Origin: Geobacter sulfurreducens PCA
GTDB taxonomy: Bacteria; Desulfobacterota; Desulfuromonadia; Geobacterales; Geobacteraceae
Direction: 5' to 3'
Assembly: GCF_000007985.2 (NCBI RefSeq)
Contig: NC_002939.5
Span: 1,440,001-1,472,000, forward strand
Length of the DNA stretch: 32,000 bases
Under the pieces are notes generated by a model that did not search any database, was not told the DNA's origin, and saw only the letters and a list, made by a program, of their open reading frames with translations. The position numbers and the translations under genes were made by a program. Positions 4,378 through 29,539 of the stretch are shown one piece after another. How positions within the stretch are numbered: position 1 is the first letter of the stretch; each line of letters begins with the position of its first letter.

Positions 4378-4457
4378 ATAACCGTACACTTTGGTCAAAT
4401 AACGCATCATTCCGATTTGCCGTTGTTTTTTGCCAGTCATTTCCGTTGCTCACGGAT

Positions 4458-4931: not shown

Positions 4932-6065
4932 ATGGGAAATTTTCGCTTTCACGGGAATGCCATGAGACTGCCCGGTTCGGCGCGGATTTCATTGCTGGCA
5001 GTGTTCATTATCGGGATCAGCCTGTTCCACTATCTGACCCCCCTTCACCTGCCCGCTCTCCATGATCTGTTCCAGAGACTCTACTATCTTCCGATCATCC
5101 TGGCCGCCTTCTGGTTTGGGCTCAGGGGAGGACTCGGCACGGCAGTCGTCGTCAGTATCCTCTACGTGCCCCACGTCCTGTTCCAGTGGGGGGCGCGGCC
5201 GTCGCTGGAGCTGGAGAAGTTTCTTGAAATTCTCCTCTACAACGTGGTGGGAGGCATCACCGGCTACCTGAGCCAGAAGGAAGAGGAGCGGAGGAACGAG
5301 TTGGAGCGCGCCGCCCGGCGTTTAGAGGATTCCTACCGCACCCTCAGGGGGCAGGCCGACCTCATCATCGGCATCGAGGAGCAGTTGCGCCGGGCCGAAC
5401 GCCTGTCGGCACTGGGGGAGATGTCGGCCATGCTGGCCCACGAGATCCGAAACCCGCTGGGCTCCATCCGGGGCACGGCGGAGATCCTGCGCGACGACTT
5501 CAGCCCCGGCGACCGCAAGTTCGAGTTCCTGGAGATCCTCATCAAGGAAACCGACCGGCTCAACCGGGTGGTCGAGGATTTCCTGCGCCTGGCGCGGCCG
5601 CTGGATGGGGAGAAAAAACGATGTGACCTGGCGGCCGAGCTGCGTGAACTCGTGACGCTCCAGGAGAGCGAGGCTACCGCCCGGGGGATCGGACTCAGTC
5701 TTGAGGCGGGAGAAGCGCCGACGGTGGCCGGGGACCGGGAGCGGCTGCGCCAAGCCTTTCTCAACTTGATCCTCAATGCGCTCCAGGCGACCGGCGAGGG
5801 CGGTCGCGTGGCCGTGCGTCTGGCAATGCGCGGAGCCAGCGGCGATATGCCCGCCGGCGTCGAGATCACGGTGTCGGACACGGGGCGTGGGATCGATCCG
5901 GCTCAGCGGGAAAAGATCTTTACTCCGTTTTTCACCACCAAGGAGGGAGGAACCGGCCTGGGACTCGTCATTACCCAGCGGATCGTGGAGGCCCACGGCG
6001 GCACCATCGGCCTGGAGAGTGAGCCCGGCAGGGGAACCACTTTCAGGGTGTGGCTGCCGGTGTGA
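4932..6065 (+). CDS. Membrane sensor histidine kinase (HisKA + HATPase_c)
   Basis: 377 aa. 3-4 N-terminal TM helices with no obvious periplasmic or PAS domain. H-box LAHEIRNPL, N-box LILNALQA, G1 SDTGRGI, G2 GGTGLGL. Start uncertain (alternative ATG at 4962). Confidence 0.9.
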   Translation: MGNFRFHGNAMRLPGSARISLLAVFIIGISLFHYLTPLHLPALHDLFQRLYYLPIILAAFWFGLRGGLGTAVVVSILYVPHVLFQWGARPSLELEKFLEILLYNVVGGITGYLSQKEEERRNELERAARRLEDSYRTLRGQADLIIGIEEQLRRAERLSALGEMSAMLAHEIRNPLGSIRGTAEILRDDFSPGDRKFEFLEILIKETDRLNRVVEDFLRLARPLDGEKKRCDLAAELRELVTLQESEATARGIGLSLEAGEAPTVAGDRERLRQAFLNLILNALQATGEGGRVAVRLAMRGASGDMPAGVEITVSDTGRGIDPAQREKIFTPFFTTKEGGTGLGLVITQRIVEAHGGTIGLESEPGRGTTFRVWLPV

Positions 6066-6084: not shown

Positions 6085-7467
6085 ATGGCTGAAGAGCGGC
6101 AACCTGCCCGGGTGCTGATCGTCGACGATGACGTATCGCTGCGCCGGGTACTCGAATACAACCTCCAGGAGGAGGGGTACGACGTGATCACGGCGGGCAG
6201 CGGCGAGGAGGGGCTGCGCCTGTTCGATGAGCGTTCGCCGGCCCTGGTGGTCACCGACCTGAAAATGCCCGGCATGGGGGGATTCCGGCTCCTGCAGGAA
6301 ATCAAGGGACGTTCGCCCGACACGGCGGTCATCGTGATCACCGCCTTTGGTGCCGTGGAGACGGCGGTCGACGCCATGAAAGCCGGGGCCTACGACTACA
6401 TCACCAAGCCCTTCAACCGTGATGCCTTGAAGCTGACGGTGAAAAAGGCCCTGGAGATGCTCGGGCTTTCCCGGGAAAACCGCCGCCTGCGGGAGGCTCT
6501 CACGGAGCGGGAGGATTACCGGAGTATCGTGGGCATCTCCCGCCGGATGGAGGAGGTCTTCCGGGTCGTGGACCGGGTGGCCGACACGGACGCTACGGTC
6601 CTCATCACCGGCGAATCCGGCACCGGCAAGGAACTGGTGGCCCGTGCCGTGCACACCCGCAGCTCACGGAGAGCAGCCCCCTTCGTGGCGGTCAACTGCG
6701 CGGCCATCCCCCGCGATTTGCTTGAGAGCGAGCTGTTCGGCCACGTCAAGGGTTCCTTCACCGGCGCTGTGCGCGACAAGGCGGGAAAATTCCAGCAGGC
6801 CGAGGGAGGGACCCTCTTCCTCGACGAAGTGGGCGAGTTGCCCGTTGAACTCCAGTCGAAGCTCCTGCGGGCGCTCCAGGAAAAGGAGGTTCAGCAGGTG
6901 GGGGGCACCGAGGTCCGGAAGCTGGACGTCCGGGTGGTGGCCGCCACCAACGCCGATCTGGAGCAGGCCATCGAGGAGGGCCGCTTCCGCGAGGACCTCT
7001 ACTACCGCCTCTCGGTCATACCGATTCACCTGCCGCCGCTGCGGGAGCGGAAAGAAGACATCCCCCTGCTGGTGCGCCACTTTGCTGCGCGGCACGGCGG
7101 CGATCGGGTAGCCTTTGCCCCGGAGACCCTGGAGGTCATGGCTGACTATGGCTGGCCGGGCAACGTCCGGGAGTTGGAAAATACCGTGGAGCGGCTCCTC
7201 ATCATGCGCTGCAGCGACACTATCACCCCGGCGGACCTTCCCGACAAGGTACGCAGCCGCCGCGCACCGTCGACGGAATGTCCCGTTATCAGCCTACCCG
7301 ACGAGGGATACTCCCTTGAGCAACTGGAGCGGGAAATCGTGGTGGAAGCCCTGGAACGGAACAACTGGAATCAGAGTTCGGCGGCGCGCTTTCTTCGCAT
7401 TCCGCGCCATACACTCATCTACAGGATGGAGAAGTATCAGATCACTGCACCGGAGAGAAAAAAATGA
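6085..7467 (+). CDS. Sigma-54-dependent response regulator (NtrC family enhancer-binding protein)
   Basis: The track ORF 5776-7467 is N-terminally over-extended. ATG 6085 follows GGGGGAG. REC (VLIVDDD...VVTDLKMPGM), AAA+ domain (GESGTGKE, GSFTGA loop, LFLDEV), Fis-type HTH (AARFLRIPRHTLIYRM). Confidence 0.93.
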   Translation: MAEERQPARVLIVDDDVSLRRVLEYNLQEEGYDVITAGSGEEGLRLFDERSPALVVTDLKMPGMGGFRLLQEIKGRSPDTAVIVITAFGAVETAVDAMKAGAYDYITKPFNRDALKLTVKKALEMLGLSRENRRLREALTEREDYRSIVGISRRMEEVFRVVDRVADTDATVLITGESGTGKELVARAVHTRSSRRAAPFVAVNCAAIPRDLLESELFGHVKGSFTGAVRDKAGKFQQAEGGTLFLDEVGELPVELQSKLLRALQEKEVQQVGGTEVRKLDVRVVAATNADLEQAIEEGRFREDLYYRLSVIPIHLPPLRERKEDIPLLVRHFAARHGGDRVAFAPETLEVMADYGWPGNVRELENTVERLLIMRCSDTITPADLPDKVRSRRAPSTECPVISLPDEGYSLEQLEREIVVEALERNNWNQSSAARFLRIPRHTLIYRMEKYQITAPERKK

Positions 7468-7970
7468 GAAAATTTGTCCGCCTTCTGCCTCTGTTGATCC
7501 TGCTGGCGCTCCTGGGCTGCTCCAAGGAGCAGAAGCCCGCCGTGCAGGGAAACCCCGCCCCCGACTTCACCCTCAACACCCTCAAGGGTGAGGTTGTGAA
7601 GCTGTCCGACCTGAAGGGGCAGGTGGTTCTCGTCAACTTCTGGGCCACCTGGTGCCCCCCCTGCCGGGAGGAGATCCCCTCCATGATGCGGCTTGAGGCA
7701 GCCATGGCCGGCAAGCCGTTCAAGATGCTCTGCATCTCCATCGACGACGGCGGGCCGGTGGCGGTGGAGGATTTCTTCCGCAAGACGGGCTTTAATCTGC
7801 CCACGCTGATGGACACCGACAAGCAAGCCAGTAAACTCTACGGCGTCACCGGCGTGCCGGAGACGTTTGTGGTGGATAAAAATGGGGTTATACTCAAGAA
7901 GGTCGTGGGGGGCGTGCAGTGGGACCACCCCGACGTGATCGCCTATCTCAACGGCGCCCTGGCCAAGTAG
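7464..7970 (+). CDS. TlpA/ResA-like thiol:disulfide oxidoreductase lipoprotein (thioredoxin fold)
   Basis: 168 aa. Signal peptide with lipobox LLGC. Active site WATWCPPCREE. ATG overlaps the activator stop codon (ATGA at 7464-7467). Confidence 0.9.
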   Translation: MRKFVRLLPLLILLALLGCSKEQKPAVQGNPAPDFTLNTLKGEVVKLSDLKGQVVLVNFWATWCPPCREEIPSMMRLEAAMAGKPFKMLCISIDDGGPVAVEDFFRKTGFNLPTLMDTDKQASKLYGVTGVPETFVVDKNGVILKKVVGGVQWDHPDVIAYLNGALAK

Positions 7971-7995
7971 GGCACCCCGCCAAGTCGAGGTATTC

Positions 7996-14963: not shown

Positions 14964-14969
14964 TTTCGC

Positions 14970-14999
14970 AGAATATTCTCCGCTGCTGTGGAATATTCT
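14970..14999 (+). promoter_or_regulatory. Twin palindromic boxes AGAATATTCT / GAATATTCT spaced exactly 20 bp apart (candidate operator)
   Basis: GAATATTCT occurs at 14971-14979 and 14991-14999. The first is embedded in the perfect 10-nt palindrome AGAATATTCT (14970-14979). They lie immediately downstream of the candidate -10. Confidence 0.35.
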
Positions 15000-15112
15000 T
15001 CACCGCCCGGCGGTCAGCTACGATGCGCCGCACGGACTTTCAACCGGTTACGGCATGGCACGGCCTGTGTAATGCCGATCTGAGACCCTATCCAGAGGTA
15101 CCGGAGACTGAA

Positions 15113-16393
15113 ATGATCACTTGCATCCTGAGGACCCTTCTCGCATCGGCGGTTTGCGTCCTGCTCCTTGCCGGCCCGGCCCGGTCCGGAGATGCTCCGG
15201 CCGGGGAGGATCTGAACTCCCTGGTGAGCCGCGCCCTTGCCGTCAACCCGGAGCTCAAGGCTTCCGAGGCCCGGTGGGAGATGTTCCGCAACCGCGTGGC
15301 CCAGGCCGGCGCCCTGGCCGACCCCATGCTCATGTTCAAGCTCCAGAACTTTCTCCTGCGCGATCCCCTGGACAGCCGGCGGGACCCCATGAGCCAGCGG
15401 GTGATCGGCATCTCCCAGGAGCTTCCCTTCTGGGGCAAGCGCGCCCTGAAGACCGAGATCGCCGACCGGGAGGCCGAGGCCCTCAGGTGGCAGGTGGAGG
15501 AGCGCAAGCTGGAGCTGGCCCGCATGGTCAAGGAGACCTGGTACCAGCTCTACCTGGTTGATCGGGAGCTGGATATCGTGGAACGCAACATCCGGGTGAT
15601 GGACGACTTCGTCACCCTGGCCGAAACCCGTTACTCGGTGGGGCAGGGGGCCCAGCAGGACGTGTTCAAGGGACAGGTGGAGCGTTCCCGGATGCTCGAC
15701 ATGCAGATCGCCCTCGCGCAGCAGCGCACGAGCCTCCAGGCCACCCTCAACACCCTCCTCTTCAGGCCGGCCGAGACCCCGGTGGGGCGCGTGCCGGACC
15801 TGGAGATCCGCCCCATTTCCCTCTCAGCCGCCGAGTTGCGTGCCCTGGCCGAGGAGAACCGTCCCCAGTTCAGGAGCGTGCGGGCCCAGTTGGAAAAGGG
15901 GGCGGCAGGGCACCGGCTGGCCGGCCTGGAATCATTCCCGGACGTGACCCTCTCCCTTGAGTACATGCAGCGGGACCCCTCCATGGATGAGCGGGGGTAC
16001 GACATGTACTCGGTGGGGCTCACCTTCAATCTGCCGGTGCAGCGGGAGCGCCGCCGCGCCATGGCCCGGGAGTCCGTGGCCGAGACGGACATGGCCCGGG
16101 CCGAGCTGAACACCCTGAACAATGCCATTGCCTTGGGCATCGCCGACAGCCTGGCCCGGCTGGAACGCAGCGAAAAACTGGCGCAGCTCTACCGCACGGG
16201 GATTATCCCCCAGGCCGAGCAGTCGCTGGAATCGGCCACCATCGGCTACCGGGTGGGGAAGGTCGATTTCCTCTCCCTGCTGGACGCCCGGGTTACGGTC
16301 TTCAATTACGAACGCCAGTACTACGAGGCCCTGGCCGAGCACGGCATGCGCCGGGCCCAGCTGGAGGCGCTGGTGGGGAGGGAACTGGAGTGA
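15113..16393 (+). CDS. cusC: Outer membrane efflux protein (TolC/OMF family) of heavy-metal RND system
   Basis: Track ORF 14912-16393. ATG 15113 begins a signal peptide [26 protein letters not shown] (no lipobox). Two-repeat OEP pattern. Stop overlaps the next gene's frame (GTG 16390). Confidence 0.85.
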
Positions 16394-16416
16394 GCCGCCA
16401 TCGCGAGGGATATGCC

Positions 16417-17772
16417 ATGTTGTTCACGAGAAGGATCATGCTGCCGCTGGTGGCGCTTCTGCTGGCCCTGGTCGCTGCTGGCTGCCAGAAGCAGGGGGCC
16501 GAAGCCCCCAAAGGGGACGGCCACGACCACGCCGCCGAGGCCAAGGTCGAGTACACCTGCCCCATGCACCCCTTCATCATCAAGGACAAGCCCGGATCAT
16601 GTCCTATCTGCGGCATGGACCTGGTGAAGAAGGTCGCCGGAGCCGGCGCCGACGCCAAGGAACTGGAGAAGCTCGCCCAGGTAGCCATCCCCACCACCCA
16701 GATGGTGATGGCCAACGTGGCGACCCAGCCCGTGACGGCCAAAAGCCTCCAGAAGGAGATCACCGCCACGGGGATCGTGGCCTACGACCAGCGGCGCCAG
16801 GCCAAGGTAACCGCCTGGGTGGCGGGGCGGATCGATCGGCTCAACGTCAACGCGGTCGGCGACTTCGTCTCCAGGGGACGGCCGGTGGCGGAACTCTATT
16901 CGCCCGACCTGGTCTCGGCCCAGCAAGAGTATCTCCTGGCCCTCAAGAGCCGCGACCGGCTCAAGGACTCTCCCATCGCCTCCATCTCCCAGGGGGGAGA
17001 GGGGCTCGTGGCTTCCGCTCGGCAGCGGCTCCTGCTCATGGGAGTGAAGGAACAGCAGATCGCCGGTCTGGAAAAGGCGGGACAGCCCAACATCAAGCTC
17101 CCCGTCTATACCCCCCTCTCCGGCGTGGTGATCGAAAAGATCGCCATCGAAGGGCAGTACGTGAACATGGGCGATCCCCTCTTCACCATCGCCGACCTCT
17201 CCACGGTCTGGGTCGAGGCCGAGATCTACGAGAGCGACGTCTCCTTCGTCAAGGTGGGGCAGCGGGTCGAGGTGACTTCTGCCTCGTGGCCGGGCAAGAC
17301 CTTTGCGGGGCGCATCTCCCTGGTCTATCCGTTCCTCGATCCCAAGACTCGGACCATCAAGGCCCGGATCGAGCTCTCCAACCCTGGGCTGAAGCTGAAG
17401 CCCGACATGTTCGTCAACGCCGCCATCAAGATGCCCCTGGGCTCGGCCGTTGTCGTCCCCGCTGCGGCGGTGATGGATACCGGAACCCGGCAGGTGGTCT
17501 GGGTGCAGGTGAAGGAGGGGACCTTCCAGCCCCGCGACGTGAAGGTGGGGGCGAGGGTCGGCGACGAGGTGCAGGTACTCTCGGGGCTGACGGCGGGCGA
17601 AGTGATCGCCTCCTCCGGCGCGTACCTCATCGACTCGGAATCGCAGTTGCGGGGCGGCTCCGGCACGGGCCACGAAGGGATGCCCGGCATGGAAAAGGAA
17701 GGGGTGAAACCGGCCCCGGCCGCGCCTCCCGCCAAGAAGAACGACATGGGCATGGATGACATGAAGATGTGA
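16417..17772 (+). CDS. cusB: RND periplasmic adaptor (membrane fusion protein), CusB-like, with N-terminal Cys4 metal-binding ribbon and Met/His-rich C-tail
   Basis: ATG 16417 gives a lipoprotein signal [31 protein letters not shown] heavy-metal-binding domain. HlyD-like barrel-sandwich/beta-barrel core. Tail [11 protein letters not shown]...[10 protein letters not shown]. Confidence 0.9.
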
Positions 17773-17782
17773 TGGAGCCGTC

Positions 17783-20700
17783 ATGATCGAGAAAATCATC
17801 GAATATTCGGCCCGCAACCGGGTCATCATCCTCATGCTTTTTGCCCTGGTCATCGGCTGGGGGATCTGGGCCGTCTACAAGACGCCGGTGGATGCGATCC
17901 CCGACCTCTCCGACAACCAGGTGATCGTTTTCACCGACTTTCCCGGCCGCTCCCCCCAGGTGGTGGAGGACCAGGTGACCTATCCCCTGGCGGTGAACCT
18001 CCAGGGCCTTCCCCGGGTAAAGGCGGTGCGGGCGTCGTCGGCCTTCGGCTTTTCGATGATCTACGTGATCTTCGACGACAAGGCAGACATCTACTGGGCC
18101 CGGACCCGGGTGCTGGAGCGGCTGAACTACGCGGCCTCGCTCCTGCCCGCCGGCGTGGTGCCGACGCTGGGCCCCGACGGCACCGGCGTGGGGCACGTCT
18201 TCTGGTACACCTTGGAAGGGAAGGGGTACGACCTGGAACAGCTCCGGACCCTGCAGGACTGGTTCGTCCGCTACCAGCTCAACACCGTGCCCGGCGTGGC
18301 CGAGGTGGCCTCCATCGGCGGCTTTGTCCGCGAATACCAAGTCGACCTGGACCCCCACAAGCTCTTTGCCTATAACATCAAGGTCTCCGACGTGATGGAG
18401 GCGATCAAGGCGGCCAACAACGACGTGGGAGGCCGCCTGCTGGAACAGGCCGATGCCGAGTACCTGATCCGGGGCCGGGGCTACGTCAAGTCGCCCGCGG
18501 ACATCGAAAACATCGTGGTCACCGCCGACATGCGCGGCACCCCGGTCTACGTTAAGAACCTCGGCACCGTCCAGATGGGGGGCGCCATCCGCCGTGGACT
18601 CCTGGACCTGAACGGCGAGGGCGAGGTCGTCGGCGGGATCGTGGTCATGCGCTACGGCGAGAACGCCAAGGACGTCATCGATCGGGTGAAGGAGAAGATC
18701 ACCGCCCTGGAGAAGGGGCTGCCGCCGGGGGTGAAGATCAAGACCGCCTACGACCGCTCCGACCTGATCGAGCGGGCGATCCATACCCTCAAGCGGGCCC
18801 TGACCGAAGAATCCATTGTCGTCTCCCTGGTGGTGCTCGTGTTCCTGCTCCATTTCCAGAGCGCCCTGGTGATCGTCCTGACCCTGCCCATCGCGGTGCT
18901 CATCGCCTTCATCACCATGAAGCTCATGGGAGTCAGCTCCAACATCATGTCCCTGGGAGGGATCGCCATCGCCATCGGCGTGCTGGTGGACGCCGGGGTC
19001 ATCATGGTGGAGAACTGCTACCGCCACCTGTCCGAACTGCCCGAGGAGGAGCGGAAGGCGCGGCGGCTTGAGGTGATCATCGCCAGCGCCAAACAGGTGG
19101 GACGGGCCATCTTCTTCTCCCTGGCCATCATCGTCCTCTCCTTCGTGCCGGTCTTTCTCCTGGAGGGACAGGAGGGGAAACTCTTCCATCCCCTGGCCTT
19201 CACCAAGACCTTCTCCATGGTGGGCTCGGCCCTGATCGCCATCACCCTGGTGCCGGTTCTCATGTATTTCTTCATGCGGGGCAAGATGCCGCTGGAGAGC
19301 GCCAACCCGGTTTCCCGCTTCTTCATCCGGCTCTACGGGCCGGTGATCAGGTGGTGCCTGAAGTGGAAAAAGACGGTCATCGCCCTGAACATGGTGGCTC
19401 TGCTCGTTGCCGTGCCCCTCTACATGAAGCTGGGCTCCGAGTTCATGCCGCCCCTGGATGAGGGGTCGCTCCTCTACATGCCGGTGACCCTCCCCAACGT
19501 CTCCATCACGGAGGCCAAGCGGATCATCCAGGTCCAGGATGCCGTCATCAAGAGCCACCCCGAGGTGGAGCTGGTGCTCGGCAAGGTGGGGCGGGCCGAA
19601 ACCTCCACCGACCCGGCGCCGGTCTCCATGTTCGAGTCGATCATCATCCTTAAGCCCAAGGATACATGGCGGCCCGGCATCACCAAGAACGACATCGTCA
19701 GCGAGCTGGACGCCAGGCTGCAGCAGATCGGGGTGCGCAACGGCTGGACCCAGCCGATCATCAACCGGATCAACATGCTCTCCACCGGGGTGCGGACCGA
19801 CCTGGGGCTCAAGATCTTCGGCAACGACCTGAACGTCCTGCGCGATCTGGCGGTGCAGGCGGAAGGAATTCTCAAGGGGGTCAACGGCGCGGCGGACGTG
19901 GTGGCCGAGCGGGTCACCGGCGGCAACTACCTGGACATTGATATCGACCGCGAGGCGGCGGCCCGCTATGGAGTCAAGGTAGCCGACGTGCAGGAGGTGA
20001 TCGCCACGGCCCTGGGAGGCGAGACGCTCACCACCGCCGTTGACGGCCGCAACCGCTTCCCGATTCGGCTCCGCTACCTGCGCGACTACCGGGACAGCAT
20101 CCCGGCCATTCAGCGCATCCTCGTTTCCGGCATGGGCGGTGCCCAAGTGCCCCTGTCCCAGGTAACCAAGCTCAAGGTCTCCACCGGCGCGCCGGAGATC
20201 GCCAGCGAGGGGGGACTGCTCCGCTCCATCGTCTTCCTCAACGTCCGGGGCCGCGACATGGGGAGCTTCATGAAGGATGCCCAGGCCGTGGTCGAGAAGC
20301 AGCTGAAGCTGCCGCCGGGCTACTATGTGTCCTGGTCGGGGCAGTGGGAGAACCAGGTGCGGGCCAAGGCGCGGCTCCAGGTCCTGATCCCGGCCGGAAT
20401 CGTGATCATCTTCATCCTGCTCTACTTCACCTTCCACTCGGCCCTGGAGGCGAGCATGGTGATGCTCTCGGTTCCCTTCGCCCTGGTGGGCGGGGTCTAC
20501 CTGGTGGCCGCGCTCGGGTATAACATGTCGGTGGCGGTCTGGGTCGGCTTCATCGCCCTCTACGGCGTGGCCGTGGAAACCGGAGTGGTGATGGTCATTT
20601 ATCTGCACGAGGCCCTGGACAAAAAACTCATGGCCGGTCCGGTGACAGAGCAGGACATCTACGACGCCACCTACGAGGGGGCGGTGCTCCGCCTGCGGCC

Positions 20701-20920
20701 CAAGCTCATGACCGTGGCGGTGGCTCTCATGGGGCTTGTGCCGATCATGTGGTCCAGCGGCACCGGCGCCGACGTCATGAAACCCATCGCGGCACCCATG
20801 ATCGGCGGCATGATTTCCTCCGCCATCCACGTGCTGATCATGACGCCGGTCATCTTCGTGCTGATGAAAAAGCACGATCTGAAGAAGGGAAAGCTGAAGT
20901 ATTCGGGAATGAAGCACTAA
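17783..20920 (+). CDS. cusA: Heavy-metal efflux RND pump, CusA-type (Cu(I)/Ag(I))
   Basis: 1045 aa, 12-TM RND layout. The TM4 segment GIAIAIGVLVDAGVIMVEN resembles the CusA signature more than the CzcA-type DFGxxxDGAxxxxEN (from memory of these families). Confidence 0.93.
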   Translation: MIEKIIEYSARNRVIILMLFALVIGWGIWAVYKTPVDAIPDLSDNQVIVFTDFPGRSPQVVEDQVTYPLAVNLQGLPRVKAVRASSAFGFSMIYVIFDDKADIYWARTRVLERLNYAASLLPAGVVPTLGPDGTGVGHVFWYTLEGKGYDLEQLRTLQDWFVRYQLNTVPGVAEVASIGGFVREYQVDLDPHKLFAYNIKVSDVMEAIKAANNDVGGRLLEQADAEYLIRGRGYVKSPADIENIVVTADMRGTPVYVKNLGTVQMGGAIRRGLLDLNGEGEVVGGIVVMRYGENAKDVIDRVKEKITALEKGLPPGVKIKTAYDRSDLIERAIHTLKRALTEESIVVSLVVLVFLLHFQSALVIVLTLPIAVLIAFITMKLMGVSSNIMSLGGIAIAIGVLVDAGVIMVENCYRHLSELPEEERKARRLEVIIASAKQVGRAIFFSLAIIVLSFVPVFLLEGQEGKLFHPLAFTKTFSMVGSALIAITLVPVLMYFFMRGKMPLESANPVSRFFIRLYGPVIRWCLKWKKTVIALNMVALLVAVPLYMKLGSEFMPPLDEGSLLYMPVTLPNVSITEAKRIIQVQDAVIKSHPEVELVLGKVGRAETSTDPAPVSMFESIIILKPKDTWRPGITKNDIVSELDARLQQIGVRNGWTQPIINRINMLSTGVRTDLGLKIFGNDLNVLRDLAVQAEGILKGVNGAADVVAERVTGGNYLDIDIDREAAARYGVKVADVQEVIATALGGETLTTAVDGRNRFPIRLRYLRDYRDSIPAIQRILVSGMGGAQVPLSQVTKLKVSTGAPEIASEGGLLRSIVFLNVRGRDMGSFMKDAQAVVEKQLKLPPGYYVSWSGQWENQVRAKARLQVLIPAGIVIIFILLYFTFHSALEASMVMLSVPFALVGGVYLVAALGYNMSVAVWVGFIALYGVAVETGVVMVIYLHEALDKKLMAGPVTEQDIYDATYEGAVLRLRPKLMTVAVALMGLVPIMWSSGTGADVMKPIAAPMIGGMISSAIHVLIMTPVIFVLMKKHDLKKGKLKYSGMKH

Positions 20921-20955: not shown

Positions 20956-21429
20956 ATGAAGAAACTTGCAGTTATCATCGCGGTTGCAGCGCTCGCCCTG
21001 GCGGCGCCCCTCACGGTTATGGCCGCTGACCACGGCAAGGGGGGTATGAAGCATGGCGACCATGCCGATCACGGCACCGCGGCTCACGAAGAAGTGGTCG
21101 ACGGCGTCAAGGCTACCTTCAAGATCATGAGCATGGCCGAGCACATGAAAGCCATGAACATGGAATTGCCCAAGGGAATGAAGGAGACCCATCACATTGC
21201 CGTGGAGTTCAAGGATGCCAAAACCGGCAAGGCCATTACCCAGGGCGAGGTGAACCTGAAGGTCCAGGGGCCGGATAACAAGGCCCAGACCAAGGCGCTG
21301 ATGGCAATGCAGGGACACTTCGGCGCCGACTTCGACCTCTCCAAAAAGGGGAAATACGGCATCATGAGCAAGTTCAAGGTGAAGGACGGCACGGTGCGCA
21401 GCGCCAGGTTCTGGTACGAAGTGAAGTAG
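20956..21429 (+). CDS. Secreted His/Met-rich putative metal-binding protein (157 aa), last gene of the efflux operon
   Basis: Track ORF 20749-21429 is over-extended. ATG 20956 follows AAAGGAG. Signal peptide MKKLAVIIAVAALALAAPLTVMA. HGKGGMKHGDHADHGTAAHEE, MSMAEHMKAMNM, MAMQGHFGADF. Only 35 nt after cusA. Confidence 0.7.
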   Translation: MKKLAVIIAVAALALAAPLTVMAADHGKGGMKHGDHADHGTAAHEEVVDGVKATFKIMSMAEHMKAMNMELPKGMKETHHIAVEFKDAKTGKAITQGEVNLKVQGPDNKAQTKALMAMQGHFGADFDLSKKGKYGIMSKFKVKDGTVRSARFWYEVK

Positions 21430-24239: not shown

Positions 24240-25106
24240 ATGAACATCAGAACGATGACGGCAGTGGCGGCAGTCCTCTCGGTAGCGGCGGTTGCAGGTT
24301 GCGGCGGCGGTGGCGGCCAGTCGGCGGCGCCCCAGACGACCATCAGCGGCACGGTGGCGGACGGCTACCTCTTCAAGGCCGAGGTGTTCCTGGACCGGAA
24401 CGGCAACTATCAGCAGGATTCGGGCGAACCGGCCACGACCACCGATGTGAACGGCAGATTCTCCCTGGCGATCACCCCGGGCGAGGAAGCGCTCTACCCG
24501 GTGGTGGCCCGCGCGGTTGGTTCCAACACCTATGACATGGACGCCCCGGCCCAGCCCCTGACCCAGGGCTACATCCTCACGGCCCCCCGGGGAATGCACG
24601 GCTTCATCAGTCCCATCTCCACCCTGCTGCGCGAGAAGTACGAAACCGGCAACTATGCATCCGTCAGCGATGCCATGCACGAGATCCGGCAGCAACTGGG
24701 CCTCACGGTCCTGAACCCAGCCAGCGCTGTCCTGTCCACGGACGATTTCGTGGCACTGTCCGGCTCCACGAACACGACGACCCACACCGAATATCAGAGG
24801 GTCCGGACCGTGGCCGGGGTGATCGCGGACCTCATGGCCGGGCAGATCTCCTCCGATGCGGCCGTCAACGTCAACCGGTACCGCTACATCATGGGGCGGA
24901 TCAACCTGAGTCTGCCCCAACTCTGCTTCGAGGCCACCCAGAGCGCCAACCCCGACGTGGCGAACATGCGGACGCGCTACATCGGCACCATCCCGGGCAC
25001 CTTCGTCAACATGACGGGCATGTTCCGCAACATGACCACGACCACCTTCTGGAACCTGTCGGGCTCCACCATGGTCCCCCGCAACCGGGGCGGCATGATG
25101 CGCTGA
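24240..25106 (+). CDS. Hypothetical lipoprotein (288 aa) with Met-rich C-terminal tail
   Basis: Track ORF 23919-25106 overlaps the riboswitch and is over-extended. ATG 24240 follows AGGGAGGG. Lipobox AVAGCGGGGG. N-terminal segment ISGTVADGYL..AEVFLDRNGN...TDVNGRFSL resembles a carboxypeptidase-regulatory-like beta domain. Tail NMTGMFRNMTTTT...GGMMR. Confidence 0.7.
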   Translation: MNIRTMTAVAAVLSVAAVAGCGGGGGQSAAPQTTISGTVADGYLFKAEVFLDRNGNYQQDSGEPATTTDVNGRFSLAITPGEEALYPVVARAVGSNTYDMDAPAQPLTQGYILTAPRGMHGFISPISTLLREKYETGNYASVSDAMHEIRQQLGLTVLNPASAVLSTDDFVALSGSTNTTTHTEYQRVRTVAGVIADLMAGQISSDAAVNVNRYRYIMGRINLSLPQLCFEATQSANPDVANMRTRYIGTIPGTFVNMTGMFRNMTTTTFWNLSGSTMVPRNRGGMMR

Positions 25107-25133
25107 CCCGCGCCTGTCGCCGGCGTTTCGACG

Positions 25134-25168
25134 GGGCCGTTTCCTTTGGGGAGCGGCCCTGTTTTGTT
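25134..25168 (+). terminator. Probable intrinsic terminator after the lipoprotein gene
   Basis: GGGCCG-N14-CGGCCC followed by TGTTTTGTT. Confidence 0.45.
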
Positions 25169-25207
25169 GCAGAATAGTCCACAGGCTTTCTGGAGATTAT
25201 TCTGCAA
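25167..25207. promoter_or_regulatory. 41-bp inverted repeat TTGCAGAATA-N21-TATTCTGCAA (candidate enhancer/UAS for a sigma-54 activator)
   Basis: Perfect 10-nt arms (the stem extends to about 13 bp). Centre is about 92 bp upstream of the -24 element at 25279. Confidence 0.45.
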
Positions 25208-25249
25208 TCTCCTCCCCGTGATATGTTTCCCCACTTTTAGTTGTTGATA

Positions 25250-25262
25250 AATCAATGGATTA
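25250..25262 (+). promoter_or_regulatory. IHF-consensus site AATCAATGGATTA (WATCAANNNNTTR)
   Basis: Exact match to the IHF core consensus, located between the inverted repeat and the -24/-12 element. Confidence 0.35.
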
Positions 25263-25277
25263 CGCAAGCGGGCACAC

Positions 25278-25293
25278 TGGCACGCCAATTGGA
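25278..25293 (+). promoter_or_regulatory. Candidate sigma-54 promoter TGGCACG-CCAA-TTGGA
   Basis: Perfect -24 TGGCACG with correct 10-nt spacing. The -12 element is TTGG instead of TTGC. Lies 54 nt upstream of ATG 25347. Confidence 0.5.
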
Positions 25294-25346
25294 TTAGACT
25301 CCGTCGTAACCCGGCGGAACCGAAGCCGCCTTCAAAGGAGCCTGTC

Positions 25347-25751
25347 ATGGGTGCAATGAAAAAAGGAACCATCGGTATCGTGGTCGCGGCAGTGATCGTG
25401 GTGGTGCTCTGTGCATTTGCGGTGCGGCTGGAGGCGTCGGCTGACAGCGTGGCCGTCCTGCGGGCCCAGGGCATGACCTGCGGCAGCTGCGCCGGCAAGA
25501 TCGAGAAGACGCTCGGCAAACAGGCGGGCGTCGCCAGAGTCCAGGTGGACGTGGATGCCGGCAAGGTCGTGGTCGGCTTCGACTCCCGCACCGTGCGGCC
25601 CGAGATTCTGGCCGAACGCGTTACCGGCGCCGGCTACGGATGCAGCATCCTCCAGGTCCTCACCCCCGAGGAGTACCGGGCGCAGACCGGCAGTACCACC
25701 GCCTTTGTCCGGCAGGGTGGCGGGTGCGGCGGAGGCTGCTGCGGTAAGTAG
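25347..25751 (+). CDS. Membrane-anchored heavy-metal-associated (HMA) domain protein with poly-Cys C-terminus
   Basis: 134 aa. N-terminal TM/signal anchor GTIGIVVAAVIVVVLCAFAV. HMA motif GMTCGSCAGKIE. Tail GGGCGGGCCGK. RBS AAAGGAG. Confidence 0.85.
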   Translation: MGAMKKGTIGIVVAAVIVVVLCAFAVRLEASADSVAVLRAQGMTCGSCAGKIEKTLGKQAGVARVQVDVDAGKVVVGFDSRTVRPEILAERVTGAGYGCSILQVLTPEEYRAQTGSTTAFVRQGGGCGGGCCGK

Positions 25752-25867
25752 GGCCCGGCTGGTCGGGGGCTCGTTGAGTTTCATCGGCCCCTCCGCCGCA
25801 CGAACACAACCAACACTCGCTCAGAAACACTCCCGGCAGGGAGAAACGCGCAAGGGGGATATTCGCA

Positions 25868-26344
25868 ATGCAGACCGGAACAGTAAAGCAGATGATGAAG
25901 CTCGGGGTGATCGCTCTGGCGGCCGTGCTGGTCGTGGCTGGAGCGGTGACTGCCTTCAGCCTGCCGGGGTTCGGCAAGTTCGAAAAGGCCAAGGTCGTGA
26001 AGGGTGCCGTGAGCATTCCCCTGGCCGACCTGCAGGACGGCAAGGCCCGTTTCTACCGCCACAGCGAAGGGGGGCGCGATATTGCCTTCTTCGCGGTCAA
26101 GGCCCCTAACGGCAGCTACCGGGCCGCCTTTGACGCCTGCGAGGTCTGCTTCCAGGAGAAGAAGGGCTACGTGCAGGATGGCGGCTTCATGACCTGCCGC
26201 CAGTGCAACAAGAAGTTCGCCACCGACCGCATCGGCGAGGGGCCGGGCGGCGGATGCAACCCGGCGGCCATCCCCGCCCGGCAGGCCGGCGGCAATCTGG
26301 TTATCAACGTAGCCGACATCCGCACCGGCGCCCGGTTCTTCTGA
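25868..26344 (+). CDS. Single-TM Cys-rich protein, DUF2318-like (CxxC-x15-CxxC-x16-C)
   Basis: 158 aa. TM helix LGVIALAAVLVVAGAV. CEVCFQEKKGYVQDGGFMTCRQCNKKFATDRIGEGPGGGCNP. The family assignment is from memory of DUF2318 proteins that accompany FtsX/ABC pairs. Confidence 0.7.
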   Translation: MQTGTVKQMMKLGVIALAAVLVVAGAVTAFSLPGFGKFEKAKVVKGAVSIPLADLQDGKARFYRHSEGGRDIAFFAVKAPNGSYRAAFDACEVCFQEKKGYVQDGGFMTCRQCNKKFATDRIGEGPGGGCNPAAIPARQAGGNLVINVADIRTGARFF

Positions 26345-26385
26345 GCCCGGCAGCCTGACAACAGTACACAGGAACGGGGAGCTCC

Positions 26386-27546
26386 ATGAAGCTGCATAAC
26401 ATCTCGATCAACAACCTGCGCCGCCGCCGGGCCAAGATGCTCTTTCTCACCGTGGGGCTCGCCGTGGGGATTGCCACCATCGTCACCCTCATGACCCTCA
26501 CCGCCTCCATGTCCAACGACATCGGGCGCAAGATGGACGAATTCGGCGCCAATATCCTGATCACCCCCCAGAGCAACGACCTCTCCATGAGCTACGGGGG
26601 CATCAGCCTGGGCCGGGTCACCTTCGACCAGCGGGAGATCCGTCAGGAGGACCTGGCGCGGATCACCGCCATCAAGAACAACAAAAACATCCTGGCTGTA
26701 TCCCCCAAGGTTCTTGGCGGGGTACGATTCGGCGACAAGGACGCCCTCCTGGTGGGGGTCGACTTCGAGAGCGAACTCAAGATGAAACAGTGGTGGCGGG
26801 TTTTCGGCGAGGTGCCCAAGGACGGCGCGGGCGTGCTCCTGGGCAGTTCCGCTGCGGACACGGCCCATCTTACCCCGGGCGACGCCGTCACCATTGCCGG
26901 ACGTTCCTTCACCGTCACCGGCGTACTCGATCAGACCGGCTCCCAGGACGACTCCCTCATCTTCATGCCCCTGGCCGACGCCCAGAAACTGCTGGGCAAG
27001 GAAGGGCGGATCACCCTGGTGGAAGTGGCGGCCCTCTGCTCCGGCTGCCCCATCGGCGACATGGTGGTGCAGATCGCCGAAAAGCTCCCCGAAGCAAAGG
27101 TCACCGCCATCCAGCAGGTGGTCGAGTCGCGGCTCAAGGCCCTGGACCATTTCCGCCGCTTCGCCTACGCCGTGGCCGGCGTGGTCATCTTCATCGGCTC
27201 ACTCATCGTCTTCGTCACCATGATGGGGAGCGTCAACGAGCGCACCACCGAGATCGGCGTGTTCCGCGCCATCGGCTTCCGCAGGAGCCACATCATCCGG
27301 ATCATCCTGCTGGAGGCGGCCCTGGTGAGCGTCCTGGCCGGGCTCGTCGGCTACGCCGCCGGCATGGGCGGGGCCACCGTGGCGCTCCCGTTCATGGCCG
27401 AAAGCAAGGACGCCGTCCTGGTCTGGGATTCTACGGTCCTGGCCGGGTCGGTCCTCCTCTCCCTGGTGGTGGGGATGCTGGCGAGCCTCTACCCGGCGCT
27501 CCACGCCAGCAGGATGGACCCCACCGAGGCGCTCAGGGCGCTGTAA
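26386..27546 (+). CDS. ABC transporter permease, FtsX/MacB-LolCE type
   Basis: 386 aa. TM1, then an extracytoplasmic domain of about 220 aa, then 3 C-terminal TM helices (FtsX domain, ...EIGVFRAIGFRRSHI...). Ends ...MDPTEALRAL, typical of this family. Confidence 0.9.
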   Translation: MKLHNISINNLRRRRAKMLFLTVGLAVGIATIVTLMTLTASMSNDIGRKMDEFGANILITPQSNDLSMSYGGISLGRVTFDQREIRQEDLARITAIKNNKNILAVSPKVLGGVRFGDKDALLVGVDFESELKMKQWWRVFGEVPKDGAGVLLGSSAADTAHLTPGDAVTIAGRSFTVTGVLDQTGSQDDSLIFMPLADAQKLLGKEGRITLVEVAALCSGCPIGDMVVQIAEKLPEAKVTAIQQVVESRLKALDHFRRFAYAVAGVVIFIGSLIVFVTMMGSVNERTTEIGVFRAIGFRRSHIIRIILLEAALVSVLAGLVGYAAGMGGATVALPFMAESKDAVLVWDSTVLAGSVLLSLVVGMLASLYPALHASRMDPTEALRAL

Positions 27547-27578
27547 CGTACACCGCAACCATAGTTCGGGGGAACGCA

Positions 27579-28283
27579 ATGGCACTCATACAAATCAATG
27601 ATCTCACCAGGCACTACGCCGGCGGCGACGAGACCGTCCAGGCGCTCCGGGGCGTAAGCCTGACCATCGAAGACGGCGAGTTCGTCACCATCATGGGCCA
27701 GTCCGGATCGGGCAAGAGCACGCTCCTGTCGGTCCTGGGGGGAATGAACCACCCCACCGCCGGCGAGGTGGAAATGGCCGGAGTCCGGCTCTACGAGCTC
27801 TCCGGCGAGCAACTGGCCGACTTTCGCGCCGAGAAGCTCGGCTTCGTGTTCCAGTCGTTCCACCTGGTGCCGTACCTGACGGCCCTGGAGAACGTCATGC
27901 TTCCCCTGTCCATTACCAGGATGAAGAACCGCGACAAGATCGCTGCGGCACGTGAAGCCCTGGAGCGGGTCGGGCTGGGCGGCAAGGCCGACCGGCTCCC
28001 CAACCAGCTCTCCGGCGGCGAGCAGGAGCGGGTCGCCATCGCCCGGGCCATCGTCAAGAAGCCCCCCATCATCCTGGCCGACGAGCCCACCGGCAACCTG
28101 GACACGAAAACCAGCGAAGAGGTCATGGACCTGTTCCGCCGCCTCAACGCCGCGGGCCACACCGTTGTCATGGTCACCCATAACCCCGACAACTGCGCCT
28201 ACGCCGACCGGACCATCCGCCTGCGCGACGGCCTGGTTGTCGAAGACGGCGTGGCCGACGCAACTACGCGAACCGCCGCCTGA
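27579..28283 (+). CDS. ABC transporter ATP-binding protein (MacB/LolD-like)
   Basis: Track ORF 26790-28283 is over-extended. ATG 27579 follows GGGGGAA. Walker A GQSGSGKST, Q-loop, signature LSGGEQER, Walker B ILADEPTGNLD, H-loop VTHN. Confidence 0.95.
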   Translation: MALIQINDLTRHYAGGDETVQALRGVSLTIEDGEFVTIMGQSGSGKSTLLSVLGGMNHPTAGEVEMAGVRLYELSGEQLADFRAEKLGFVFQSFHLVPYLTALENVMLPLSITRMKNRDKIAAAREALERVGLGGKADRLPNQLSGGEQERVAIARAIVKKPPIILADEPTGNLDTKTSEEVMDLFRRLNAAGHTVVMVTHNPDNCAYADRTIRLRDGLVVEDGVADATTRTAA

Positions 28284-28329
28284 AGCGGCCACCGGATATC
28301 GTAGGGATTCACGCCGAAGAAAAAAAGTG

Positions 28330-28359
28330 TTGACTCCCCCCGCGTCCCTTTGCTATATA
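28330..28359 (+). promoter_or_regulatory. Sigma-70 promoter of tRNA-Gly (TTGACT-18 nt-TATATA) with A-rich UP-like tract
   Basis: TTGACT 28330-28335, TATATA 28354-28359. GAAGAAAAAAAG lies just upstream. The tRNA 5' end is 16 nt downstream of the -10. Confidence 0.6.
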
Positions 28360-28374
28360 ACGGGAACCTGTTTC

Positions 28375-28449
<75 letters not shown>

Positions 28450-28456
28450 AAAAGCC

Positions 28457-28494
28457 AAGGGGCCAGATCAAGAATCTGGCCCCTTTTTGTTTTG
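28457..28494 (+). terminator. Rho-independent terminator after tRNA-Gly
   Basis: AAGGGGCCAGAT-caaga-ATCTGGCCCCTT followed by TTTGTTTTG. Confidence 0.8.
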
Positions 28495-28630
28495 TATGTA
28501 CTACTCACAGCGTTTCAGCTCACCTCTTTTATTCACACCTTACGGCATCTCCGGAATAACTTTTCCATCGAATTAGTAACGTCTGTGCCCACCTTCAAGA
28601 TGCGGCTCTCGTTTCCCGCAACGGTTCCGT

Positions 28631-29539
28631 TCAGCGTGAAGTCCGACCGGTGTCCGAGGAGCAGTCGGCTGCGAGGATAGCGATCAGCTGGTGCAGGGCG
28701 GGGTTGGTGTTGCCGGGAAGCCATGCCGCTGCCAGGCGGACCGGGTCCAGGGGGTCGCGGAGCGGGATGAAAGCTACATTGGGATGGGGCAGGCCGGCCA
28801 CGTCGCTCGGCATGAGGCATACCCCCTTGCCCGTCCCGATCATCCCCAGGACCTCGATCAGCGACCCGGCCTTCAACTCGAACTTGGGCCTGAAGCCCGC
28901 CCTGGCGCAGGCAGTGCTGATGACCCGGTTCCGGCCGGGGAACTTGTCCTCCAGGTAGCCGATGAAGGTGTCGCCTTCAAGCTCCCCGATGCATATCTCC
29001 GAACGTCCCGCCAGCCGGTGGCGCACCGGCAGCACCGCCACCAGGGGAACTTCCCTCAAGACATACAGTTCGAATTCGTCCCCGGCCCCGTCGTGGGGGT
29101 TGCCGATGAACCCCAGATCGATTTGCCGGTAGCGCAGGGCGGCAATCTGGTCGCCGGGCGACATCTCGTTGACCGTGACGTCGATGTCGGGCCGCTCCTG
29201 GGACAGCCTCACGAGGGCGTCGCTGAGAAACGACTCCATGGCGGTCGAGATGAAGCCGATGGTGAGCTTCTGGTGATTCAGCCCATTTTCCCTGACCGCA
29301 CGTATTCCCTCCTCGCAATCCTGCAGAACGCGGCGCGCGTAAAAAAGAAACTTCTCTCCTGCCGCAGTCAGACGCAAACCAAACCGTTCCCGGGTAAAGA
29401 GCTGGGCTCCCAGCTCGCATTCCAGCTCTTTGATCAGGCGGCTGACCGCGGGCTGCGATATGTGGAGCCTGTTGGCGGCCCGGGTGAAATTGAGCTCTTC
29501 CGCCGTAGCGGCAAAGTATCGCAAGTGTCTGAGTTCCAT
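28631..29539 (-). CDS. LysR-family transcriptional regulator
   Basis: 302 aa. N-terminal wHTH MELRHLRYFAATAEELNFTRAANRLHISQPAVSRLIKELE. C-terminal LysR substrate-binding domain. Confidence 0.93.
   Translation of the reverse strand: MELRHLRYFAATAEELNFTRAANRLHISQPAVSRLIKELECELGAQLFTRERFGLRLTAAGEKFLFYARRVLQDCEEGIRAVRENGLNHQKLTIGFISTAMESFLSDALVRLSQERPDIDVTVNEMSPGDQIAALRYRQIDLGFIGNPHDGAGDEFELYVLREVPLVAVLPVRHRLAGRSEICIGELEGDTFIGYLEDKFPGRNRVISTACARAGFRPKFELKAGSLIEVLGMIGTGKGVCLMPSDVAGLPHPNVAFIPLRDPLDPVRLAAAWLPGNTNPALHQLIAILAADCSSDTGRTSR

Follow-up and report, generated by a model that had tools for sequence, protein, structure and literature searches.

In Campylobacter jejuni, a module composed of a DUF2318 protein, FtsX permeases, and an ABC ATPase is required for FetMP-dependent growth (PMC10783030), and in the published view DUF2318 genes occur "almost always" in such Fet clusters (PMC6083913). 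Homologous clusters of this poorly understood module are conserved in many pathogens. A second described system relevant here is the RND machinery for copper efflux to which CrdA contributes a copper-binding component (PMC9182242, PMC12319023). Here, we examine a stretch of 32,000 nt from Geobacter sulfurreducens PCA (contig NC_002939.5, positions 1,440,001 to 1,472,000), which we refer to as the window, and within it a four-gene operon, GSU1338-1341, that encodes an HMA protein, a DUF2318 protein, an FtsX permease, and an ABC ATPase. An initial annotation, made from the letters of this DNA, had proposed that the four genes form an uncharacterized envelope metal-handling system. The genes are already annotated, with the label "general metal efflux pump" (PMC3495685), and an RpoN promoter was predicted for GSU1338 with PromScan in 2009 (Leang et al., PMC2725144, supplementary file 4), yet the system is uncharacterized: the literature that we searched (DUF2318, PF10080, Geobacter + HMA + FtsX, GSU tags) contained no functional study of GSU1338-1341.

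We find that GSU1338-1341 are probably a Cu/Ag-linked envelope module of a Cus regulon, a reading to which we assign a probability of about 0.7. Our best reading of the sequence evidence is that the operon, together with the cusCBA-GSU1333 genes, would constitute a Cu(I)/Ag(I) envelope-defense regulon under a dedicated kinase and an NtrC-type activator.

Conservation of the operon in Geobacterales

The coordinates published for GSU1330, GSU1332, GSU1338, and two predicted RpoN promoters (PMC2725144) map onto the window with a constant offset of 1,440,003. Because these coordinates and the promoter 17-mers all fit at a single offset, the operon genes can be identified as GSU1338-1341, and the gene order in G. 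sulfurreducens YM18 is the same as in the window. The four genes lie on one strand with gaps of 116, 41, and 32 nt, as first described, and all of the sequence-level statements of the initial annotation hold; profile searches likewise upheld its family assignments (HMA, DUF2318, FtsX/MacB, and ABC). Judging by sequence, the four genes appear to form one sigma-54-dependent operon.

We scanned one genome per species and used the best 80 of more than 595 matches to gene 2, the DUF2318 gene, all of which were from Geobacterales. An HMA gene preceded DUF2318 in 59 of the 71 testable loci, and downstream of DUF2318 we found FtsX in 61/68 loci and the ABC gene in 62/68. In 42 of 64 loci, the stop codon of DUF2318 overlapped or abutted the start codon of FtsX, an indication that the two proteins form a stoichiometric pair. 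Seven loci (L020, L025, L042, L047, L056, L088, and L011) carried HMA-DUF2318 or CrdA-like-DUF2318 without FtsX-ABC; loci of this kind still adjoined kinase/activator genes, and several were second copies in genomes that also have the full operon.

This survey of DUF2318 neighborhoods, which had been suggested at the outset, found Ftr1 in none of them. Among the 5786 open reading frames (ORFs) of all 90 loci, 0 contained the two REXXE motifs of an Ftr1-type permease, and neither PF03239 nor PF10634 appeared in the precomputed Pfam lists of the locus contexts. The proposal that the DUF2318-FtsX-ABC trio is detached from an Ftr1/P19 pair thus stands as far as Ftr1 and PF10634 are concerned, both being absent from all loci, but it needs amending for P19-like proteins, as a protein of CrdA/P19 fold occurs in the same regulon (see below).

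Promoters and regulators

The operon promoter has the form TGGCAC-N5-TTGG, in which the -24 part is perfect and the -12 part reads TTGG, not TTGC (GG, not GC). At the equivalent fixed distance before the first gene, TGGCAC-N5-TTG was kept in 61 of 69 HMA-led loci, as compared with 8/106 background windows, more than chance would give, which supports the sigma-54-type promoter that the initial annotation had placed before the operon and that had been predicted earlier (PMC2725144). The further notion that the trio was recruited to handle a thiophilic metal, in company with an enhancer-dependent promoter and an HMA protein rich in thiolates, is backed by the two counts, 59/71 and 61/69, and by the absence of Ftr1; HMA also precedes DUF2318 in unrelated metagenomic lineages, with the Cys-rich tail kept. 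A scan of positions 24900-28700 yielded no sigma-70-like promoter. Within 250 nt upstream of the -24 element, the 9-mer AGAATATTC was present in 40 of 72 loci.

In the window, the promoters of the operon and of cusCBA are both preceded by the same paired GAATATTC-like sites. Of 29 loci, 11 have a GAATATTC pair and, after it, a -24/-12 element ahead of cusC, as compared with 7 of 305 random windows that contain such pairs. About 11 other loci have cusC behind the ABC gene with no promoter of its own, so that (HMA)-DUF2318-FtsX-ABC-CusC-CusB-CusA looks like one unit. The window represents the type in which cusC has its own upstream activator site (UAS) and promoter.

A sensor histidine kinase and an NtrC-family activator are encoded 18 kb upstream of the operon in the window. 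Near-orthologues of one or both stand beside the operon in 41 of the 80 loci (the kinase, with E ~1e-135, in 37/80; the activator, with E ~1e-200 to 1e-224, in 30/80), and 42 of the 47 loci that span at least 12 kb have kinase/activator and/or Cus genes within 7 kb. Based on this gene linkage, the pair is probably the sensor of the regulon and the activator of both promoters. The kinase has no periplasmic domain, and its best NCBIfam match, to ZraS, reached 228 bits, below the cut-off of 479, while the activator scored 395 against 760 bits for ZraR; the pair therefore falls outside the ZraSR equivalogs, the kinase having no periplasmic sensor domain. As it has no such domain, the kinase may read the membrane or a transporter and not free metal, which is speculation on our part.

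Two features near the regulator genes were set aside. A TlpA/ResA-like thioredoxin gene, whose start overlaps the activator stop, and a CcdA/DsbD_TM gene lie at 7464-8724 (+) and are reminiscent of FetE/F; as conserved partners by analogy to FetE/F they were dropped after 0 matches in the 80 loci. Upstream of the kinase, a near-consensus sigma-54 element, TGGCCCGCATATTGCT (4457-4472, +), precedes an 86-aa ORF (4532-4792), which is not conserved and has no homologue in related loci.

A Cus-type pump and a CrdA/P19-fold protein

The pump encoded by GSU1330-1332 is of the Cus type. Its CusA protein is 47% identical to E. coli CusA, with M566/M616/M665 corresponding to M573/M623/M672 of the E. coli methionine triad; D403, E932, and K974 align with E. 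coli D405, E939, and K984, and transmembrane helix 4 reads AIGxxxDAGxxxVEN, of HME4 type. CusB scored 160 bits against the NCBIfam CusB model, below its cut-off, and 80 bits against MacA, and its true start is probably 16438. The true start of cusC is the ATG at 15113, which matches GSU1330; the longest ORF, from 14912, engulfs the UAS and the promoter. A tblastn search with E. coli CusF found no CusF in the window or in related loci. CusC orthologues adjoin the operon in 29 loci, CusC/CusB (E 1e-141 to 1e-183) are adjacent in 33, and CusA was matched in 25 loci, with orthologues at 83-94% identity in 23 related loci.

GSU1333, which directly follows cusA, has no Pfam match, and its family was found by clustering unlabeled ORFs. 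A homologue occurs in 20 loci, directly upstream of DUF2318 in 7 operons that have no HMA gene and ahead of HMA in three to four loci. A GSU1333-type protein is a member of the regulon and can take the position of HMA as first gene of the operon. The AlphaFold2 model of GSU1333 has a pLDDT of 80-95 for residues 40-157, and its top Foldseek matches were H. pylori CrdA (apo and Ag-bound) and FetP/P19/FtrA, then DUF4426, PmoD, and HftA, with E values of 5e-5 to 1e-3. When the PDB was searched with a profile of the GSU1333 family, no link to P19 or CrdA emerged at the level of sequence, the likeness being one of fold only. On the basis of the model, GSU1333 is probably a periplasmic Cu/Ag-binding protein.

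Published transcript data for strain PCA show the two operons varying together. GSU1333, GSU1340, and GSU1330 decrease together in current-producing biofilms (PMC2680965 Table 3), and in a gsu1771 mutant, GSU1338 and GSU1339 changed by log2 -2.6 and -3.1, and GSU1330-1332 by -2.0 to -2.3 (PMC10599522, supplement 3). Under Co(II) stress, neither operon was induced (log2 0.03-0.5, false discovery rate ~1; PMC7726332 supplement). The co-variation and the lack of a response to Co(II) fit control by a shared regulator and a metal that is not cobalt. While the initial annotation had left the substrate as a thiophilic metal (Cu, Ag, Hg, Cd) or a metal-sulfur species, the thiophilic character stands and the choice can be narrowed to Cu(I)/Ag(I), because the RND pump that is conserved as a partner is of the Cus type and has the methionine triad, and because Co(II) does not induce the genes.

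Proteins of the operon

The HMA domain of gene 1 (PF00403, 54 bits against a cut-off of 24.8) has its GMTCGSC loop at residues 42-48; the protein contains GMTCGSCAGKIE and ends in the tail GGGCGGGCCGK. Its N-terminus is basic and continues into a hydrophobic signal/anchor segment of 18-20 residues ending A-S-A, from which a periplasmic protein, secreted or anchored, is predicted. Among its orthologues, G[MI]xCxxC is kept in 60 of 63, at least 3 Cys within the last 30 residues are likewise found in 60/63, and an AxA-D junction and LTPEQF linker are common to the majority. Gene 1 scored below the equivalog cut-offs of NCBIfam for CopZ_Bs (51.7 against 91 bits), MerP (39.2 against 92.55), and MerTP (38.3 against 180).

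Gene 2 matched PF10080 with 103.5 bits against a cut-off of 26.3, which confirms its assignment to DUF2318. It has one N-terminal hydrophobic/transmembrane helix, followed by C91xxC94-x15-C110xxC113-x16-C130, and C91, C94, C110, C113, C130, and P132 were invariant in an alignment of 55 sequences. In the wider form CxxC-x13-17-CxxC-x14-18-C, this Cys5 motif was present in 89/89 locus copies. The AlphaFold2 model (pLDDT 90) had Rieske ferredoxins as its top Foldseek matches, and these were weak (E ~1e-3; TM-score 0.44, normalized to query length). Sequence and profile searches of the PDB with gene 2 returned only chance zinc-ribbon matches and no solved relative. An exhaustive profile search with gene 2 gave 1521 clusters at 50% identity, the best 150 being mostly short proteins of 150-250 aa, and a second search gave at least 3591 clusters at 90% identity. 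Tandem forms also occur, with 2-4 DUF2318 domains in proteins of 400-575 aa (P0013, P0014, P0020, and P0034), meaning that the Cys5 module can be multiplied within one chain.

Genes 3 and 4 belong to the MacB-type (type VII) superfamily. Gene 3 is a permease with 4 transmembrane helices and a large periplasmic domain between the first and second (TM1 and TM2), where MacB_PCD lies, followed by a 3-helix FtsX C-terminus; it scored 74.2 bits against PF12704 and 74.1 bits against PF02687, and its nearest solved relatives are Spr0695 (5xu1) and MacB (5gko, 5lil, 5nik). Gene 4 (PF00005, 120 bits) is a complete ATPase, closest to MacB, LolD, and FtsE, whose catalytic motifs are all intact; its Walker A reads GQSGSGKST, its signature motif LSGGEQ, and its Walker B ILADEPT. 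The transporter stayed below the equivalog cut-offs for LolCE (61 against 362 bits) and MacB (54 against 966 bits). By the positive-inside rule, the HMA domain, the DUF2318 domain, and the large FtsX loop would all face the periplasm.

Related loci outside Geobacterales

We read nine distinct metagenomic or genomic contexts from outside Geobacterales. The order HMA-DUF2318-FtsX-ABC was found in 3 of the 9, and the HMA partners in the two with readable sequence (L005 and L096) have the same architecture and a GGCGGxCC tail; in one other context, a Cys/His-rich protein of 134 aa takes the place of HMA. A homologous sigma-54 two-component pair stands in front of the trio in a distant locus (L001). 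In a metagenomic locus (L093, 459-12410), a CusA/CzcA-family pump gene lies just upstream of DUF2318-FtsX-ABC, with one gene of 728 aa between, and genes for Spy/ZraP-like and YHS proteins follow the trio; this locus is an independent instance of the link between the trio and a heavy-metal RND pump. One context had a BlaI/CopY-family repressor, and two had two permeases and no clear metal partner; a P-type ATPase beside this two-permease variant (L092) could not be assigned to copper. Ftr1, P19, and a dedicated membrane-fusion gene were found in 0 of the 9 contexts, and the occurrence of the trio outside Geobacterales without a membrane-fusion gene favors a periplasmic job in the style of LolCDE or FtsEX over a tripartite pump.

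Features of the window and neighboring genes

The features discussed above are collected in Table 1. A tRNA gene downstream of the operon was the sole match of an Rfam scan, and a strong bidirectional terminator hairpin with a stem of 12-13 bp lies just past it, at 28457-28485. As no terminator separates the ABC gene from the tRNA, transcription of the operon may continue into the tRNA-Gly.

Table 1. Coordinates of the operon, its candidate regulatory elements, and linked genes in the window
Feature	Position	Strand	Description
Gene 1, GSU1338	25347-25751	+	134 aa, HMA; PF00403 E 2.2e-14
Gene 2, GSU1339	25868-26344	+	158 aa, single transmembrane helix; PF10080 (former DUF2318, now "FtrD-like") E 7.7e-30
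Gene 3, GSU1340	26386-27546	+	386 aa; MacB_PCD residues 22-210, FtsX residues 262-379
Gene 4, GSU1341	27579-28283	+	234 aa; ABC_tran E 1.2e-34
Sigma-54-type -24/-12 promoter of the operon, CTGGCACGCCAATTGGA	25277-25293	+	Identical 17-mer predicted for GSU1338 (PMC2725144)
Inverted repeat TTGCAGAATA-N21-TATTCTGCAA	25167-25207	.	Two GAATAnTC-like half-sites; candidate activator site of the operon
Paired GAATATTC palindromes upstream of cusC	14969-15000	.	~21 bp apart; candidate activator-binding site (UAS)
Sigma-54-type promoter of cusCBA, ATGGCACGGCCTGTGTA	15055-15071	+	Identical RpoN prediction for GSU1330 (PMC2725144 supplement)
cusC, GSU1330	15113..16393	+	CusC-type outer-membrane factor; Pfam OEP
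CusB-type membrane-fusion protein, GSU1331	16390..17772	+	Pfam HlyD_D23, HMBD (N-terminal heavy-metal-binding)
CusA-type HME-RND pump, GSU1332	17783..20920	+	TIGR00914 1172 bits; Cu(I)/Ag(I) methionine triad
GSU1333	20956..21429	+	157 aa, secreted, His/Met-rich; directly after cusA; CrdA/P19-like beta-sandwich fold
Sensor histidine kinase	4932..6065	+	~4 N-terminal transmembrane helices, HisKA + HATPase_c (Pfam); probable cognate sensor
NtrC-family sigma-54 enhancer-binding response regulator	6085..7467	+	REC + AAA+ + HTH_8 (Pfam, NCBIfam)
tRNA-Gly(GCC)	28375-28449		Downstream of the operon; Rfam

The initial annotation had noted TerC and a multihaem cytochrome next to the system. They are not partners: both, and likewise a 292-aa lipoprotein, adjoin the operon in the closest relatives only and are lineage-specific neighbors. 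The cytochrome, a c-type protein of 479 aa with C-terminal IPT/TIG domains, is encoded between the Cus genes and TerC at 21502-22941 (-); it recurs in the YM18 locus (L097) and in a close metagenomic relative (L098), and in 0 of the 80 genome-scan loci. Eleven loci have a gene for a secreted Peptidase_M23 (LytM-type) protein after the ABC gene (L015, L034, L036, L043, L054, L057, L062, L069, L074, L083, and L089), frequently accompanied by OsmC-like and YtkA-like genes; a gene for such a peptidase is absent from that place in the window. Since FtsEX controls LytM-domain proteins, the pairing of a LytM-type gene with the ABC gene may not be accidental.

Discussion

We propose that Cu(I)/Ag(I) would be both the signal and the substrate of the regulon. 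From the conserved motifs, the activator would bind the paired GAATATTC-like sites that precede each -24/-12 promoter, thereby switching on both operons. The exported HMA protein could then capture periplasmic Cu(I)/Ag(I) with its CxxC site and Cys-rich tail, and the His/Met-rich CrdA/P19-fold protein could do likewise with softer ligands. From either, the metal might pass to the Cys5 DUF2318 domain, which the translational coupling would place beside the FtsX permease, anchored in the inner membrane. By analogy to MacB, LolCDE, FtsEX, and NosDFY-NosL, the FtsX/ABC motor would carry out no transmembrane transport; instead, ATP would deform the periplasmic domain and its DUF2318 partner. Such a deformation could force tightly thiolate-bound metal out toward the methionine-based CusB/CusA-CusC pump, or from the outer leaflet. 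Cu(I) is bound much more tightly by thiolate sites than by Met/His sites, and it is for this reason that we propose an ATP-driven release. The specific ATP-driven relay, being built on analogy, is put forward tentatively, as a mechanism that we would sooner doubt than expect, and to the whole account, regulon plus relay and weighed beside the four rivals below, we give even odds.

Several points weigh against this account. Neither induction by Cu or Ag nor a metal phenotype is found anywhere in the accessible literature, and in C. jejuni the phenotype of the homologous module relates to iron (PMC10783030). Instead of Cu, the DUF2318 site might contain Zn or an Fe-S cluster, Pfam naming the family "iron-sulfur containing", and periplasmic Cys-rich proteins may be oxidized. 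The -12 element, as read from the sequence, is non-consensus (TTGG/TTGA). With the kinase/activator pair 18 kb away in the window, its assignment rests on orthologues, and the seven loci without FtsX-ABC indicate that the motor is not obligatory. The hand-over to Cus, finally, is purely inferential.

Among the alternatives, a module for redox support is unlikely in our estimation, yet it has the most to recommend it. The DUF2318 domain would then be a periplasmic Rieske-like [2Fe-2S] protein or a dithiol/disulfide relay that keeps the HMA thiols reduced or converts Cu(II) to Cu(I) for the Cus pump, with the ABC transporter supplying or gating the reducing power. The CxxC-x15-CxxC spacing resembles that of Rieske loops, Rieske ferredoxins were the top Foldseek matches, PF10080 is named "membrane iron-sulfur containing protein" in Pfam, and the model for C. 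jejuni Fet invokes a relay through FetA, FetBCD, and FetEF (PMC10783030). The fold match is weak, however (E ~1e-3; TM-score 0.44), and no sequence relatives of DUF2318 with a solved structure were found. The TlpA/ResA-like thioredoxin and CcdA genes after the window activator gene, with their overlapping stop and start codons, would suit such a relay, but they are not linked to the operon in the other 80 loci, and an electron donor is not evident. To our knowledge, MacB-type transporters do not move reductants across the membrane. It is rather improbable, in turn, that the operon encodes a stand-alone exporter of metal or metal-thiolate from the cytoplasm or inner membrane, with HMA and DUF2318 as periplasmic acceptors, or, in an alternative form, a tripartite MacB-type pump that borrows CusB/CusC. 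The annotation as a "general metal efflux pump" (PMC3495685) agrees with an exporter, as do the MacB-like sequence, the MacB-type proteins as closest solved relatives, the position of cusC and cusB directly after the ABC gene in many loci, and the 80 bits of CusB against MacA. Yet the ATPase and permease have no cytoplasmic metal-binding domain, all three accessory domains are predicted to face the periplasm, and the trio is widespread without a membrane-fusion or outer-membrane gene, also in a protein named as archaeal. We know of no transmembrane substrate channel in the solved MacB structures, which further counts against export.

The module might also serve cuproprotein maturation, a role that we regard as distinctly improbable: instead of disposing of Cu(I), it would supply the metal to a copper enzyme in the periplasm or on the outer surface, or to the P19-fold protein. 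A structure paper on NosDFY from 2022 reportedly offers a precedent for ABC-powered periplasmic copper delivery. DUF2318-FtsX-ABC is accompanied by a partner of P19 fold here as in Fet systems, P19 needs Cu according to PDB titles, and NosL/NosDFY reportedly provides the precedent of such delivery (PMC6530538, PMC8457098). Set against this, the module appears co-regulated and is often apparently co-transcribed with an efflux pump, a conserved cuproenzyme gene occurs in none of the 80 neighborhoods, and basal expression is low (PMC7726332 supplement). Least probable of all, and very much so, is a role as an iron-uptake accessory like FetMP-FetABCDEF or in handling another thiophilic metal (Hg, Cd, Zn, or Pd). 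The iron-dependent growth defect linked to the homologous module of C. jejuni (PMC10783030), the scores of the HMA domain against the MerP and MerTP models, and the likeness of the kinase to ZraS, a Zn/Pb sensor, would speak for it; the Mer and Zra scores fall far short of the respective cut-offs, though, the Ftr1 permease is absent from 90 loci, the promoter is of sigma-54 type with no sigma-70 type found in 24900-28700, the linked pump is of the Cu/Ag and not the Czc type, and Co(II) does not induce.

What is new in these results is a very large subfamily of short-form DUF2318 proteins that live without Ftr1 and that, within Geobacterales, are wired to a Cu/Ag pump, an HMA protein rich in thiolates, a protein of CrdA/P19 fold, and a dedicated sigma-54 two-component system. 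This links an "iron-uptake accessory" module to copper handling and turns the Fet question toward copper hand-over, away from the transport of iron or reductant, and it places that question in the genetically tractable G. sulfurreducens PCA. A more general idea, on which we place little weight, is that DUF2318 with FtsX/ABC is an ATP-driven mover of Cu(I) between periplasmic binding proteins. If true, its clients would be small secreted copper binders (Cys-tailed HMA and CrdA/P19-fold proteins); the module of Geobacterales would empty a copper buffer of thiolate type into the Cus pump, and FetABCD of Campylobacter, Yersinia, and Brucella would load or reset the copper site of P19/FetP, which would account for the need of an "iron" system for an ABC transporter that has no obvious substrate. 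A copper/silver-linked module also suggests how strict anaerobes, in which Cu(I) dominates, protect their periplasm, and it is of relevance to metal bioremediation and to the biomineralization of copper sulfide by Geobacter.

Comparison with known systems

Going by domain content, the system has its core families in common with FetABCD while the defining features of Fet are absent, and it is a member of the MacB-type superfamily that belongs to none of its characterized equivalogs. With the C. jejuni system FetMP-FetABCDEF (cj1658-1665 / CJJ81176_1649-1656), it shares the combination of a periplasmic DUF2318/PF10080 CxxC...CxxC...C domain with FtsX permease(s) and an ABC ATPase (PMC6083913, PMC10783030), as well as a P19-fold periplasmic metal-binding protein in the same system. 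It differs in that gene 2 has 158 aa and a single transmembrane helix and no YHS domain, whereas FetA comprises 8 transmembrane helices, DUF2318, and YHS; there is one permease gene in the window operon and two in Fet; and the operon has no Ftr1/FetM permease, no PF10634 P19, and no adjacent FetE/F thioredoxins. A sigma-54-type promoter and an NtrC-type activator replace the Fur-binding sequence of the Fet cluster; the system has an HMA protein and a Cus-type pump for partners, and its P19-like protein is related at the level of fold only.

The likeness to the type VII systems (MacAB-TolC, LolCDE, FtsEX, and BceAB) lies in the permease of 4 transmembrane helices with its large TM1-TM2 periplasmic domain and in the nucleotide-binding domain of MacB/LolD/FtsE type, separate or fused, and mechanotransmission to a periplasmic partner is accordingly the mode of action to be expected here. 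In contrast to these systems, there is no dedicated membrane-fusion gene and no LolC/LolE pair, and the Cys5 DUF2318 protein is the presumptive partner; we know of no characterized type VII member that has a partner of the DUF2318 type. The linked kinase resembles BceS as an apparently intramembrane-sensing protein, but it is paired with a sigma-54 activator. Gene 1 shares with MerP and CopZ the ferredoxin-like HMA domain with GMxCxxC, and with MerP the position of this domain after an N-terminal export segment, while its conserved LTPEQF linker and GGCGGxCC tail are found in neither MerP nor CopZ. The parallel with NosDFY-NosL is conceptual only, in that an ABC transporter powers the periplasmic passage of Cu(I) from a small chaperone to an acceptor associated with the membrane and does not itself transport the metal; the protein families (the ABC-2 protein NosY, the beta-helix protein NosD, and the lipoprotein NosL) are unrelated, and the analogy is one of function. 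Compared with E. coli Cus and H. pylori Crd, the window has a sigma-54 and NtrC-type regulator instead of CusRS or CrdRS and no CusF, and it adds an HMA/DUF2318/ABC operon, seemingly co-regulated with the pump, that is part of neither model. The pump itself ties the locus to both, as it matches E. coli CusCFBA in having CusC, CusB, and a CusA with the methionine triad, and H. pylori CrdAB-CzcBA in that cusA is followed by the gene of a small periplasmic protein with a CrdA fold.

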